From a virus (taxonomy: Duplodnaviria > Caudoviricetes): a stretch of 43,531 bases of DNA. The notes beneath the pieces were generated by a model. It was not told the origin of the DNA. It saw nothing but the letters and a program-made list of their open reading frames with translations, and made no database searches. Location: IMG/VR virus record IMGVR_UViG_3300042923_000110, positions 1-43,531 of that record. One strand, given 5' to 3'. Made by a program: the position numbers and the translations under genes. This document shows, one piece after another, positions 19 to 43,349 of the stretch; position 1 is the stretch's first letter; each line of letters begins with the position of its first letter.

Positions 19-282
19 GTGTTTATTGTGCCAAGAAATAAAAGAGTAGCAAAAGAATTGAAAACTTATAATTTGAGGATTACGCCTACTGATTATGAGA
101 TCATACAACAACAAGCAGCAGCAAACGGTATACCAATGAATACACTGTTGCAAAAGATTATTGCGGACTTCACGAATAGCGAGGAAGTTACACCTAAAGA
201 GCAGAAGGTTTTGGACGAAATAAAAAGCCTCCCGCTTAAAAAGCGAAAGGCTATCATAAAAGAATTATCGGCTGACAATTAA
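19..282 (+). CDS. Arc/Mnt-like ribbon-helix-helix regulator, candidate immunity repressor (true start probably GTG at 28)
   Basis: KTYNLRITPTDYEIIQQQAAANGIPMNTLLQKII fits the RHH strand-helix-helix pattern; SD AGGAG at 13-17; divergent from the early lytic operon across the junction. Confidence 0.7.
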   Translation: MFIVPRNKRVAKELKTYNLRITPTDYEIIQQQAAANGIPMNTLLQKIIADFTNSEEVTPKEQKVLDEIKSLPLKKRKAIIKELSADN

Positions 283-3712: not shown

Positions 3713-3778
3713 TTAATATATATTTATAATTAGTTTAAAATGTGTTATAAATAGGTTTTAAACTAATTTAATATACCT
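3713..3778. repeat. Six degenerate 11-bp repeats (candidate parS array 3)
   Basis: ttaatatatat ttataattagt ttaaaatgtgt tataaataggt tttaaactaat ttaatatacct. Confidence 0.6.
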
Positions 3779-4062
3779 TCCTTATGTAGCAACTGTTTAA
3801 CCAATGTTGAGAAGGGAACAGGTATTGAATTGCAGTATTCATCTATAGCGATAGATTGAGTGTTATTAAAATATACTACCTTTGTAATTTCAGCTTTGAC
3901 ATCTTTCCTTTTTCTTCCGGCTTTATTTTTAGGCTTTGATTTTGTTGGTGTCATATTTGCGCCTTTTAGGAAGTCTTTTTCTTTACTCTCTCTTTTGTTA
4001 TCATCAATTTTATTTACACCAACGTCTTCGAAACTCATAAAATCATCATCATTTTTAGGCAT
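3763..4062 (-). CDS. Centromere-binding partner of ParA (ParG/omega-like, C-terminal RHH)
   Basis: Directly downstream of parA; charged flexible N-terminus, then KVVYFNNTQSIAIDEYCNSIPVPFSTLVKQLL. Confidence 0.7.
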   Translation of the reverse strand: MPKNDDDFMSFEDVGVNKIDDNKRESKEKDFLKGANMTPTKSKPKNKAGRKRKDVKAEITKVVYFNNTQSIAIDEYCNSIPVPFSTLVKQLLHKEGILN

Positions 4063-4075
4063 GTATTGCACCTCT

Positions 4076-4141
4076 TTAAAATGTATTTATAATATATTCA
4101 ATATGCTTTTTTAATCAGTTTAATATGTATTTTAAATATAT
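4076..4141. repeat. Six degenerate 11-bp repeats (candidate parS array 2)
   Basis: ttaaaatgtat ttataatatat tcaatatgctt ttttaatcagt ttaatatgtat tttaaatatat. Confidence 0.65.
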
Positions 4142-4764
4142 GTTCTAATCTCACGAACAAGATCGTTTATTTCATCGGCTGCCTTACCATCTTTATCTAA
4201 TTCAATAACACTTACACCTTTCGCATAGGCGGTTTTGTAGTCCTTGCGATGATGTAATACTGTACTCATTAAATTCAAATATCTCTTGTTATTCCTTACA
4301 AATAACTTTAACTTTCTAATATCTCCTTGACTTCTTGCATCGGCATTATTAATAACAACGTTTGTTTGTACAGTGGTCTCAAATTGTAAGCTTGCCTGTC
4401 TAAGTGTCCCTTCGAACGTCTGTAAGCCGAAAAGCTCCACTTGCGATGGAGACACAGGGGTAATGATAAAATCTGCCCATATCATCGCTAAACGATTAAT
4501 AGTGCTATCGTAACCACCGGAGTCAACAACTAATATTTCTTTATTATCGCGATACTGCTTAAATATCTCTTTTGCTTCATCGTCACTGCTTACTGTAAGA
4601 CAATTTAAAGGTGTATGTCCTTTTGATTTTCTTATCTTATTAAATAATACAACAGAATTTAGATTATCAAGGTCGAGAATGTCAGCCTTTAAACTAATAC
4701 CAAGATTGATTGCTATTGTGCTTTTACCTACTCCTCCTTTTTCATGTGCCACATTAATAATCAT
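4132..4764 (-). CDS. parA: ParA/ParF-family Walker-A partition ATPase (short, type Ib)
   Basis: Deviant Walker A HEKGGVGKST, VVDSGG, ADFIITPV; no N-terminal HTH; SD AAGGAG before ATG 4764. Confidence 0.93.
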   Translation of the reverse strand: MIINVAHEKGGVGKSTIAINLGISLKADILDLDNLNSVVLFNKIRKSKGHTPLNCLTVSSDDEAKEIFKQYRDNKEILVVDSGGYDSTINRLAMIWADFIITPVSPSQVELFGLQTFEGTLRQASLQFETTVQTNVVINNADARSQGDIRKLKLFVRNNKRYLNLMSTVLHHRKDYKTAYAKGVSVIELDKDGKAADEINDLVREIRTYI

Positions 4765-4777
4765 TTTACGCACTCCT

Positions 4778-4832
4778 TTTAAATACATTTAAAATTAGTT
4801 GAAAATGTATTCTATATTAATTTCAAATGCAT
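4778..4832. repeat. Five degenerate 11-bp repeats overlapping the parA leader (candidate parS array 1/operator)
   Basis: tttaaatacat ttaaaattagt tgaaaatgtat tctatattaat ttcaaatgcat. Confidence 0.65.
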
Positions 4833-4858
4833 TCGCCAAAGAATTCAAAATCTCCTGC
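4831..4858 (-). promoter_or_regulatory. sigma-H-like promoter for parA
   Basis: GCAGGAGAT-12-GGCGAAT versus the B. subtilis sigH consensus RNAGGAWWW-N11/12-RNNGAAT. Confidence 0.5.
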
Positions 4859-4900
4859 AAATAAAAATAAGCCTGCACTAGCGGTTAGGCTGTACAGGCT
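4859..4900 (-). terminator. Intrinsic terminator insulating par from the upstream gene
   Basis: AGCCTGTAC...GTGCAGGCT followed by TATTTTTATTT. Confidence 0.7.
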
Positions 4901-4911
4901 TGGAGCGATGT

Positions 4912-5082
4912 TTATTCATTAACTATTTTAACATTATTCCATTTTACAAGTTTATCTTCTAATCCTTCTGCTTTTATTACTTCAATCCCTTGGTTGTATA
5001 TAGCCAGTCCAATTGCTTTTTCTATCCCGGGGAGATTCATCACATTCAACATAAATGATTGTCTTTTTTCATTCTTAGTCAT
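4912..5082 (-). CDS. Monocistronic hypothetical 56-aa protein
   Basis: SD GGGTG before ATG 5082; has its own promoter and terminator. Confidence 0.65.
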   Translation of the reverse strand: MTKNEKRQSFMLNVMNLPGIEKAIGLAIYNQGIEVIKAEGLEDKLVKWNNVKIVNE

Positions 5083-5113
5083 AATATCACCCATTTCTTA
5101 ACATTTTATGGTA

Positions 5114-5143
5114 ATTATATGTTGTTAATTGATAGATTGTCAA
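5114..5143 (-). promoter_or_regulatory. Consensus sigma-A promoter
   Basis: TTGACA-18-TATAAT. Confidence 0.7.
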
Positions 5144-5182
5144 TAATAAGTGTTGACTTACGATCTAGGATATTATACATCA

Positions 5183-5645
5183 GGTCACTGGTTTTCGAGC
5201 ATAACTTGCCTAAATCCCTGTTAGGGAAGCAGGCAAGTGTGACTGCATCAGTATAACTTGGTATCATATGCACCTGTAGTTTTAACACAGTATAGCCATC
5301 ACCATGCCCTCTGGCACTATGTATTTAGTCACGTCTTTTCAGACATAGGTATCCATTGATTAGTTATAATCAATTGCCCAATTCTTTTCTGCCATGACAG
5401 AAGGTGATTAAACCTATGTTGAAACACAACCAATCTCACATGGATGCTACAGGACATTTAAACTGGTTGTGGCGTACTTAGCGTACTTATCTACCGCAGT
5501 AGTTGCTCTTTCCCCAAAGGAAAGTATACCCCTCTTGGCAGGTATCAGTTTGTCCCACTTGCTAACGCAGGTTTCAGTGTTTATCGGCTGTATTCGGTAG
5601 CCTAGACGTTGTGTTACCGTCTATCCGAACGTTAAAAATCCAATA
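5183..5645. ncRNA. Large structured non-coding domain (RNA or ssDNA; strand unresolved)
   Basis: No credible ORF; visibly more G+C-rich than the flanks; about ten hairpins and nested long-range helices found by hand. Confidence 0.55.
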
Positions 5646-5646
5646 T

Positions 5647-5678
5647 AAAAAGGACATTAACGTTTAACGTTATGTCCC
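5647..5678 (-). terminator. Intrinsic terminator acting as a probable attenuator
   Basis: GGGACATAACG-TTAAA-CGTTAATGTCC then TTTTT; its 5' arm can alternatively pair with 5783-5771. Confidence 0.7.
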
Positions 5679-5711
5679 GCTAATTCTCAAATATAAATTT
5701 TACAAAAATAC

Positions 5712-5741
5712 TTGCACTATATACCGCAAATATGGTATTAT
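5712..5741 (+). promoter_or_regulatory. Promoter of the small antisense RNA
   Basis: TTGCAC-18-TATTAT with TGn extension. Confidence 0.65.
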
Positions 5742-5747
5742 ATGTTC

Positions 5748-5861
5748 AAGTTCTTGCTCAATCTGTTCGAGAGATTAGCGAGAAGAATTAAAAACTGCTG
5801 ATTACAGTTATAATTCCGTTATGTACCTGTAGGCTTAATTGCTTGCAGGTATGTTTCGTTT
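5748..5861 (+). ncRNA. ~110-nt three-stem-loop antisense (countertranscript) RNA
   Basis: SL1 5751-5784, SL2 5785-5816, SL3/terminator 5821-5861; the G-U pairs in SL1 and SL3 form only on the + strand; no ORF. Confidence 0.7.
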
Positions 5862-5866
5862 ATAAG

Positions 5867-5895
5867 ATTATATCAAATTATTGTGCAATTTGCAA
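5867..5895 (-). promoter_or_regulatory. Promoter of the long sense leader RNA
   Basis: TTGCAA-17-TATAAT with TGn extension; predicted start near 5860 coincides with the 3' end of the antisense RNA. Confidence 0.7.
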
Positions 5896-5939
5896 GAAAA
5901 ATTTGCATATTTTAACACAATTACGCAAAAACTATATAG

Positions 5940-5948
5940 TTATCCACA
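5940..5948 (+). promoter_or_regulatory. Perfect DnaA box
   Basis: TTATCCACA. Confidence 0.6.
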
Positions 5949-5952
5949 AATA

Positions 5953-5998
5953 GAAAAACCCGCCTCACTCAAATGAGAGCAAGGCGGGTTTTTTATTT
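5953..5998. terminator. Bidirectional intrinsic terminator
   Basis: AAAAACCCGCCT...AGGCGGGTTTTTT. Confidence 0.8.
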
Positions 5999-6318: not shown

Positions 6319-6942
6319 TTATTTAGAATGTCTTACTGGAGTTGTAATTGCTTTTTCAATAGACCACTTTGCAAGAGTTACTCTCCCATATAGTGTTTCT
6401 CTTTTCATATTATATTCTTTAGCCCATTGTGACAATGTTTGAGTTTTCCCTTTATATGTTATTTTTACACTACTTCTCTTGTTATTGCTTTGCTCTTCTG
6501 ACGTAACCCACCTACAATTGTCCTTAAAATATCCTAATTCATTATTGATCCTATCAAGAGTTGTACCTTTAGGCCTTTCACCCATGTCTTTATAAAACCC
6601 TTCAACTGTTAACCATTCGTCGCATACTGTTATTCCTCTTCCTCCGTAATAACTATAATGAGGAACATTTTTATTAGTGCACCTTTGAACCATGCCACTC
6701 CAAACTTTATGTATTGGATTATGCCTAAGTCCGTGTTTGGTAAATCTATTTTTAGTAACTTCTTTTTGCAAACAACCGCAACTTTTAGTTTCGCCATTTT
6801 TTAAGCTACTACCAAATATTATTTTAATATTACCGCAATCGCATTTGCAATTCCAAAAAGCTTTTCTATTATTAATATGGCTAAAAGATAAAACAACTAT
6901 TCTACCAAACCTTTTACCTGTAATGTCAACAATTTTACCCAT
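6319..6942 (-). CDS. HNH homing-endonuclease-like protein
   Basis: DITGKRFGRIVV, CKCDCG, SCGC, YGGRGITVCDEW, TLDRINN..GY...NCRW...EQSNN. Confidence 0.85.
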   Translation of the reverse strand: MGKIVDITGKRFGRIVVLSFSHINNRKAFWNCKCDCGNIKIIFGSSLKNGETKSCGCLQKEVTKNRFTKHGLRHNPIHKVWSGMVQRCTNKNVPHYSYYGGRGITVCDEWLTVEGFYKDMGERPKGTTLDRINNELGYFKDNCRWVTSEEQSNNKRSSVKITYKGKTQTLSQWAKEYNMKRETLYGRVTLAKWSIEKAITTPVRHSK

Positions 6943-6992
6943 AACAAAAACCACCCCTTCGCATTAGTAGTTATTTTCTTCGCATATTAAAT

Positions 6993-37165: not shown

Positions 37166-37869
37166 AATATTTGCAACTCCTCACTCTTAGATTGATTTTT
37201 GGCAAATGGTTGTTTCTTATTAACAGCATCTACAACCCATCTACGAATAGCCAAGTTATGATTTTTACTTTTGTAACTTTTCTCTTCTATGTACTCGTCC
37301 AGAAACTTAACAAGTTTATCAAACATATCAAGTCCGTAATCAGCTACCAACTTTTCGTACTCTTTGGTGGTCAAATTCACCTTGCCAAATTCACCATATA
37401 TGTTCTTCTTTTCATTCTTATCATTCTTTACATTCTTGTTTGTGTCCATTTGTTGTTCATTTGCTGTCCATTTGTTGTTCATTTGCTGTTCTGGGAATGC
37501 GCTTGAACCGTTGATATTACTAGGTTCGTAGCTGTCCGTTTTTTCAACCTGGTAACCTGTCCAGTTTACAATAGTTATGACGCTGTATTTGGTGTAAGAA
37601 ACTATCTCTAAACTCGGATTGTTTTTATCTGCTAAGAATTGCATTAATCGCCAAACTGTAGATTCTGTTATGCTTAATTCTTCTGCTGATTTTTTTCTAC
37701 CAAAGATAAACTGTCCAGGTTCAAGCCAAACTTTCTGTAATCCGACTAATTGTTCATACCCTGTATGAGTGGCTTTTAATAGACACCAAATCCAAACCTT
37801 AAGTAACTTTTCATTTTGGAATATTGGCTTATCAAGCAAAGTTCTTGATAATTTTACCCATCCTGCCAT
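37162..37869 (-). CDS. Phage replication initiator (lambda O/DnaD-like)
   Basis: MAGWVKLSR, WIWCLLKA.H, GQFIFGR, SVITIVNW..YQ; internal iterons; upstream of the helicase. Confidence 0.85.
   Translation of the reverse strand: MAGWVKLSRTLLDKPIFQNEKLLKVWIWCLLKATHTGYEQLVGLQKVWLEPGQFIFGRKKSAEELSITESTVWRLMQFLADKNNPSLEIVSYTKYSVITIVNWTGYQVEKTDSYEPSNINGSSAFPEQQMNNKWTANEQQMDTNKNVKNDKNEKKNIYGEFGKVNLTTKEYEKLVADYGLDMFDKLVKFLDEYIEEKSYKSKNHNLAIRRWVVDAVNKKQPFAKNQSKSEELQIF
37411..37491. repeat. Lytic origin: 11-bp iterons TTTG(T/C)TGT(T/C)CA x4-5 plus CATTCTT x3
   Basis: Iterons at 37439-37491 inside the initiator gene, as in lambdoid ori. Confidence 0.75.
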
Positions 37870-43169: not shown

Positions 43170-43349
43170 TTAAACCTCCATTTTAATTAGTGGATACTGT
43201 TCTTTTATGTAATTACTTACAGCTAACGAAATGACAGCGTTCTCAGAGATACCTAACTCACTCGCCTTATTTTCTACACCAATTTTCAATTTGTTGGTAA
43301 GACGTAATGAGAACTTTTTCGCTTCGGCTTTTTCACGTTTCAAATTCAT
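43170..43349 (-). CDS. 59-aa RHH regulator in the Cro position (below the ORF-track size cut-off)
   Basis: Hand translation MNLKREKAEAKKFSLRLTNKLKIGVENKASELGISENAVISLAVSNYIKEQYPLIKMEV; SD AAGGAGG. Confidence 0.8.
   Translation of the reverse strand: MNLKREKAEAKKFSLRLTNKLKIGVENKASELGISENAVISLAVSNYIKEQYPLIKMEV

Follow-up and report, generated by a model that had tools for sequence, protein, structure and literature searches.

A candidate protein-free RNA replicon with a predicted antisense attenuator in an integrase-less phage

How might a temperate phage with a parA gene, no integrase and no recognisable Rep protein keep its prophage as a plasmid? The question is raised by a 43,531-nt stretch of DNA (the window), which is an entire 43.5-kb virus record rated 100% complete and classed as 'linear'. 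It encodes a BPP-1-like podovirus head module, lysis genes, ERF/SSB/Gam, an antirepressor and parA, and also a DnaD-like initiator and a DnaB helicase. The original prediction was that the DNA beside the par cassette holds an attenuator controlled by an antisense RNA, and that with no protein gene behind it this attenuator may meter a primer or an origin-activating RNA. A six-frame search found no tyrosine integrase, no serine-recombinase catalytic domain and no Rep3 in G000 or in G002, the record that holds the homologue described below; Rep families were checked with Pfam, PHROGs and NCBIfam alone, and many small ORFs carry no assignment. The genes of importance for the argument are the following.

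4132-4788, minus strand: parA; the whole par cassette spans 3763-4788
3763-4071, minus strand: small partner gene of parA; the same gene pair is found in Lucifera butyrica locus L126
37162-37950, minus strand: lambda-O/DnaD-like initiator gene with internal 11/22-bp repeats at 37443-37489, adjoining the DnaB helicase gene

An initiator gene with internal repeats spaced by 22 bp is present in both the window phage and G002, and gene and repeats are likely to constitute a separate lambda-like origin serving lytic growth. The same initiator could be a rival route to plasmid maintenance. The host is likely, from sequence relationships, to be a Negativicute of what we take to be the Sporomusaceae type, because the named close relatives of the window ParA are from Lucifera and Pelosinus. 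The ParA (protein P0001) is also recorded on an 82,622-bp contig, about twice the length of the record, which may be a concatemer or a larger element. AT-rich degenerate repeats at 3713-3762, 4076-4147 and 4778-4827 flank parA and its partner; they are candidate parS sites and resemble stretches in the Lucifera locus. The RHH and Ant genes are uninterrupted neighbours in two related phages, so that the record is likely a cut circle; the window begins with a ribosome site and an RHH gene, and at its extreme end a promoter-like site faces outward. Two divergent small genes with weak RHH-type matches (43170-43349, minus strand; 19-282, plus strand) flank the record junction upstream of the antirepressor, an arrangement reminiscent of immI of P22. 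The GC skew has no switch at the element.

The control region proposed for the element consists of these parts.

5867-5895, minus strand: predicted sense promoter (-35 TTGCAA, 17 nt, TATAAT, extended -10 with TG)
5712-5741, plus strand: predicted antisense promoter (-35 TTGCAC, 18 nt, TATTAT, extended -10 with TG)
5748-5861, plus strand: predicted antisense RNA of about 114 nt, with stems 5751-5784, 5785-5816 and 5821-5854, the third being its terminator
5766-5783, minus strand: 5' strand of the antiterminator, within the leader covered by the antisense RNA
5675-5691, minus strand: 3' strand of the antiterminator, ending in the 4 nt that form the base of the terminator
5647-5678, minus strand: predicted intrinsic terminator (the attenuator), a bulged hairpin of -12.0 kcal/mol followed by U5
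5940-5948, plus strand: perfect DnaA box, placed upstream from the sense promoter; it is not conserved in G002
5954-5993, both directions: terminator-like hairpin which would insulate the element from the upstream genes

All the features that had been predicted are found in the sequence at their positions, including both promoters with their spacings and TG motifs. The promoter scan lists the minus promoter and not the plus promoter, of which the -35 matches at 3 of 6 positions only. It should be noted that promoter-like sites are about as frequent in this AT-rich stretch as chance would give (18, against 17.4 expected), so that the support for the promoters is their recurrence in the homologue. 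The plus RNA folds, as claimed, into three stem-loops with an energy of -42.6 kcal/mol (z = -7.0), compared to -26.5 for the opposite strand, and its third stem is called as a terminator by the scan; the minus terminator 5678-5647 was not called by the strict terminator scan. U-turn motifs (YUNR) are present in four of six antisense loops and in four of six sense loops, the motif being short and common. The leader helix of 13 bp that was proposed as the alternative to the terminator is real; it can be drawn as 10 bp, a bulge and 3 bp, or as 17 bp in the register 5783-5766/5691-5675. Its downstream strand had been taken to be the 5' arm of the terminator, of which only 4 nt (5678-5675) turn out to belong to that arm.

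A pattern search of viral contigs gave one full homologue of the element, locus L003 in record G002, a phage of 39.1 kb with a 17-nt end repeat, parA and no integrase. Its head module and its parA do not match those of the window, and no other nucleotide match between the two is as long or as strong as the element (679 nt, 82%). What the two phages share is, on sequence comparison, the element and not a particular par system, because the two parA genes do not match each other. The identity to L003 is 63% in the antisense overlap, 76% in the terminator, 93% in the core and 81% in the distal hairpins; for five orthologous genes (amidase, HNH, SSB, RusA and Ant) it is 58-68%. The sense promoter recurs at the same position with its TG (L003 3364-3392), and the counterpart of the antisense promoter (L003 3554-3525) reads TTGCGT-18-TACAAT, also with TG. 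Short contigs of runs X5 and X2 show a third variant of the element; a 123-nt piece in run X4, which ends in adapter-like letters, was left out. At L003 2668-2850 and 3019-3230, upstream of the homologue, there are a tRNA (Rfam, 35.9 bits) and a unit of about 170 nt which have a short motif in common; the unit has a perfect promoter, a hairpin with a T tract and no Rfam match.

The six helices of the leader were first drawn on the window sequence by itself and afterwards looked up in L003, with the outer register of stem 2 moved by one base from the MAFFT alignment. In this comparison of two sequences (there is one full-length homologue), 48 of the 49 leader pairs are kept: 32 are identical, 11 are changed on one side and 5 on both sides (compensatory), and 1 is broken. 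The outer pairs of the antiterminator are kept in ten of ten cases despite eight substitutions, with three compensatory changes (null P = 0.00125), and this conservation is not a by-product of the antisense fold, because the 3' strand of the antiterminator lies outside the antisense region. The lower stem of the terminator has all six pairs kept. In the antisense RNA 32 of 33 counted pairs are kept, and its G-U pairs speak for the plus strand; in stem 3 all 14 of 14 are kept (null P = 0.00028), four in each phage being G-U pairs that would become mismatches in the opposite strand. None of the three antisense loops is the same in the two phages, as would be expected of compatibility determinants. 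The antisense and attenuator anatomy of the original prediction is supported, being conserved with compensatory changes in the homologue.

How the switch would operate was analyzed by predicted folding. When the stretch covered by the antisense RNA is blocked, the lower pairs of the terminator form with P near 1 in both phages; in the unblocked leader the antiterminator dominates until the last two bases of the terminator stem appear. At equilibrium and without antisense RNA the full-length window leader has the terminator with P of about 0.96, the L003 leader with 0.3-0.7, and the forced terminator and antiterminator states differ by 1.6 kcal/mol in the window and 0.4 in L003. The terminator hairpin of L003 has an energy of -11.5 kcal/mol, close to the window value given above. 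Folding thus favours the switch co-transcriptionally and, in the window, not at equilibrium. This weakens the case for a purely thermodynamic switch: the switch must be kinetic, because the window terminator wins at equilibrium even without antisense RNA. Read-through would need a kinetic delay, which is plausible for an attenuator.

The events can be pictured as follows. The leftward (minus) transcript from 5895-5867 would, on read-through of the terminator, enter a folded RNA of about 430 nt. Without antisense RNA 5783-5774 would pair with 5684-5675 before the 3' arm of the terminator is made, and the antiterminator would keep the bottom four terminator pairs open long enough for the polymerase to read through. 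When the antisense RNA is bound the terminator would close and a dead-end RNA of about 215 nt would be released. By forcing termination the antisense RNA of about 114 nt would count copies and set the copy number, and the divergent antisense loops would define compatibility groups.

What does the attenuator control? Behind it are the following features.

5274-5628, minus strand: non-coding core of the read-through RNA, conserved (330 of 355 columns identical); candidate initiator RNA or origin
5204-5238, folding on both strands: conserved hairpin without a U tract, at the distal end of the element
4859-5143, minus strand: separate downstream unit with a consensus promoter (5143-5114), a 60-aa orphan ORF (5094-4912) and a terminator-like hairpin (4901-4869); absent from G002

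All six frames of the core contain stops, and the non-coding read-through target that was originally proposed is the best-conserved part in the comparison of these two distant phages. What comes after the core is the 60-aa orphan in the window, with no family or Atlas match, and in G002 a radical-SAM gene. A separate promoter-like site precedes each of them, and between the element and parA there is a terminator-like hairpin. Since the downstream genes differ and have promoter-like sites of their own, and a hairpin precedes parA, the conserved target of the attenuator is, on the sequence evidence, the non-coding core. Run X1 has a 2094-nt contig of high depth that also carries the hairpin after the 60-aa ORF (window 4848-4898), there next to a DnaA-like sequence.

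These data bear directly on the idea that the attenuator controls the downstream genes, or else a small peptide or a type I toxin encoded unnoticed within the core. Of the sense frames that begin with a start codon and have at least 40 codons, one is open in both phages, a frame of 42 codons (5457-5329), which fits a peptide; against this, the 8 substitutions in the frame replace 5 amino acids and are silent once, and no ribosome-binding motif is found ahead of it. The downstream genes are opposed by the differences and the hairpin just described, and we regard control of a peptide, a toxin or these genes as very improbable.

The element could also be what is left of an Inc18/pT181-type leader after deletion of rep, as it has the same leader logic as the repR leader of pIP501 in the sections cited of PMC4981023. 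A deletion remnant is what the original prediction would have concluded from a rep ORF downstream in homologues; there is none behind the attenuator in the window or in G002, the sole full homologue. Moreover, the 355 nt downstream outconserve all five genes compared and have stops in all frames. The remnant explanation is largely refuted, and we give it almost no credence.

Whether the core is conserved as RNA or as DNA is a more delicate matter. Region 5200-5630 folds better than shuffled sequences (z = -3.4), as does the other strand (z = -3.5), and because both strands fold equally well the core may be conserved as DNA rather than as RNA. A joint fold has 2 compensatory pairs of 114, the conservation being too high to test the fold. 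The hairpin 5524-5508, which was chosen from the joint fold, has three changes after which the minus strand can still pair, by way of G-U; this is a weak signal (P = 0.046). A G-run repeat (5540-5529, 5316-5307) resembling that of ColE1 was considered and rejected, since it is at chance level (98 of 200 shuffles).

One could therefore imagine a plasmid origin which works as DNA, dependent on host DnaA as in pLS20, with attenuation only metering transcription through it, or else control by ColE1-type refolding with an incidental terminator. The similar folding of both strands fits this, as does the marginal stability of the terminator at equilibrium, and a Rep-less origin with DnaA boxes has its precedent in oripLS20, in the sections cited of PMC8557374. 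The DnaA box at 5940-5948 is another argument in its favour, together with a DnaA-like site in a sister promoter variant (below). The box is perfect, as had been predicted, and the sole perfect one in the window; at least one perfect box is found in 36 of 100 shuffles, which is chance level, and the sense promoter of G002 has no DnaA box near it. The core is neither AT-rich nor does it contain iterons, the pairing kept by the hairpin 5524-5508 is on the minus strand, though weakly, and the antiterminator has been conserved by compensation. We consider an origin working as DNA, or an incidental terminator, quite improbable.

The place of the element in the genome gives further information.

5146-5885, no strand assigned: extent of the swappable cassette, 740 nt

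A 1140-nt contig of soil run X3, a run from which the window DNA may itself derive, joins 5145 to 5886 through 1050 other bases. Because it replaces exactly 5146-5885, the cassette is, to judge from this contig, exchanged as a unit. In runs X1 and X3 another element has the promoter/DnaA-box stretch 5886-5950 of the window followed by different sequence; this sister promoter variant has a DnaA-like site in the promoter spacer, and a search of viral contigs did not find it. At 0.4-0.7 kb upstream of the cassette each carrier encodes an HNH endonuclease (window 6319-6954; L003 1922-2632; 46% identical to one another); the enzyme might promote cassette exchange, or its presence might be a coincidence. 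In the related phage L174 a tyrosine integrase lies between the lysis genes and Arc/Ant, where both carriers have the element and parA, and the fetched locus of L174 has no match to the element.

The element thus accompanies the loss of integrase and the presence of parA in two of two carriers, and this has to be accounted for by a hypothesis in which the antisense/attenuator unit meters a large phage non-coding RNA with another job (a lysis-lysogeny or immunity switch, anti-defence, a scaffold) while the lambda-O-like initiator runs the plasmid state. Both phages do have an initiator with repeats. Immunity is unexplained, as no Cro/CI-type HTH repressor was found among the window ORFs scanned, and the G002 element comes after a tRNA and another small-RNA-like unit. 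The association with integrase loss and parA argues the other way, with the integrase-bearing L174 lacking a match in its fetched locus; so does the combination of a conserved core and divergent loops, which is the pattern of a replicon, and the initiator sits in a long leftward gene block with recombination and lytic genes. An RNA with another job is in our judgement fairly unlikely.

The cassette is real, conserved and mobile, it is non-coding, and its antisense attenuator is well supported by the sequence comparison. It is likely to have origin function of some kind. With somewhat better than even confidence we favour a protein-free RNA replicon of the plasmid-prophage state, metered by antisense-driven attenuation. 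The read-through RNA of about 600 nt would then act in cis to start DNA synthesis in the plasmid state. Most likely it would be a pre-primer, as in ColE1, which the host polymerase I extends from a point close to the core end (about 5280); alternatively the origin would be opened through transcription. Priming near the core end is proposed by analogy with ColE1 and with the transcription-dependent Inc18 origins. The wider proposition is that Firmicutes phage-plasmids have an undescribed type of replicon, with a protein-free initiator RNA in the style of ColE1 that is metered by an antisense attenuator in the style of Inc18, and that the cassette moves between phages and substitutes functionally for the integrase. 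This is tentative, and we put it slightly below an even chance.

Because wider searches gave no further carrier, the element family is rare in the collections searched. Blastn gave no match in 50,697 phage records and none in PLSDB, another blastn search gave only chance matches of 24-49 nt, and Rfam had no match at gathering or at a meaningful E-value. Three core patterns led only to G002 among viral contigs (1 of 1, 1 of 4 and 1 of 37 loci) and to nothing in genome contigs; the single match in metagenome contigs had the same sequence as G002. Matches of only 34-53 nt, none covering the core, were obtained in 27 of 401 class-level genomes, and 40 order-level genomes gave none by blastn or by covariance model. 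Over 36 sources the covariance model matched only the window and G002, and over 180 other loci the best nhmmer E was 0.053. Searches led by ParA reached no close phage, and the par regions of one Veillonella, one Brevibacillus and three Paenibacillus plasmids had no homologue. The Paenibacillus peoriae plasmid pPlas2 (L187 14678-16869) has no annotated rep and a 2.2-kb unannotated hairpin-rich stretch near parA, without similarity to the element.

Many plasmids and phage-plasmids have no recognisable replication gene. The tested RNA-only origins that we found in print are from Proteobacteria and mycobacteriophages, and for pLS20 and pKH9 the mechanism is open. A cassette of 750 bp with predicted promoters, a predicted switch and two natural alleles differing in their loops makes RNA-initiated replication in Firmicutes directly testable, and it could yield small, compatible vectors for anaerobes of the Sporomusaceae type.

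The papers compared in the following are cited for the sections that bear on each point; the classes of theta replication are covered in PMC9743546. In cluster A mycobacteriophages without RepA replication needs a non-coding RNA region, which by itself also suffices for it; the region lies beside parABS and is colinear with integration cassettes. Such RNA-based origins are known from RedRock, Alma, LadyBird, Gladiator and Et2Brutus (PMC7157519). The uniqueness suggested in the original prediction is weakened by these origins. The likeness is considerable: an integrase-less temperate phage, a few hundred non-coding bases near par, and a slot exchangeable with integration cassettes (PMC7157519). 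The traits of such an origin (no integrase, no repA, par nearby) are all found in the window, where the lambda-O-like initiator is also present. The element differs in coming from another phylum and in having no blastn match in the phage records, and the main text of PMC7157519 is free of 'attenuat' and 'terminator' and has 'antisense' in one place only, the title of a reference.

ColE1 replicons, with their RNA I/RNA II control, are reported from five orders of Proteobacteria (PMC8683028). The element resembles them in having a three-stem antisense RNA of about 100 nt (predicted here) directed against the 5' end of a non-coding RNA of about 550-600 nt, with no Rep (PMC8683028). It has, unlike them, no Rfam or blastn match, and where ColE1 control consists in refolding of RNA II (PMC8683028) the leader here has a conserved terminator/antiterminator pair.

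The Inc18 plasmids pIP501 and pAMbeta1 have convergent promoters, an antisense RNA of similar size (in pIP501 a 136-nt RNA attenuates the repR mRNA), a leader terminator and a Firmicutes host, and their replication requires transcription through the origin and polymerase I (PMC4981023). In Inc18 the read-through product is the mRNA for an essential Rep and CopR represses (PMC4981023), whereas the element has no rep behind it and no adjacent copR-like gene. The MRB plasmids of Vibrionaceae have a Rep-less origin of about 500 bp and a small antisense RNA that targets a long RNA in its 5' part, with compatibility set by the antisense loops (PMC3035462). Their RNA I is a 68-nt RNA with two stems in a conserved region of about 110 bp, found in Vibrionaceae only, compared to three stems, 114 nt and no PLSDB match for the element, and 'attenuat' is absent from the text of that paper (PMC3035462). 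Rep-less regions of about 1 kb are also found in oripLS20, with DnaA boxes (PMC8557374), and in ARRPOF of pKH9, with structured RNA (PMC5737381). The DnaA boxes are conserved in all 35 pLS20 origins and not in the element (PMC8557374), which has no PLSDB or Rfam match to these regions; no antisense attenuator is described for them in the sections cited (PMC8557374, PMC5737381). The system of PMC12753305 needs two proteins, according to the section cited, and was set aside as not comparable.

The plasmid pT181 belongs with Inc18 as an antisense-attenuator plasmid. No report of attenuation of a non-coding initiator RNA was found in a search of titles and the starts of abstracts that covered few subscription papers. 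By sequence the element belongs to none of the families tested, and it works like a blend of them. RNA-based prophage origins were already known; what is new here is the predicted antisense attenuation of a non-coding initiator RNA, which, if true, joins two control schemes known separately, attenuation and initiator RNA.
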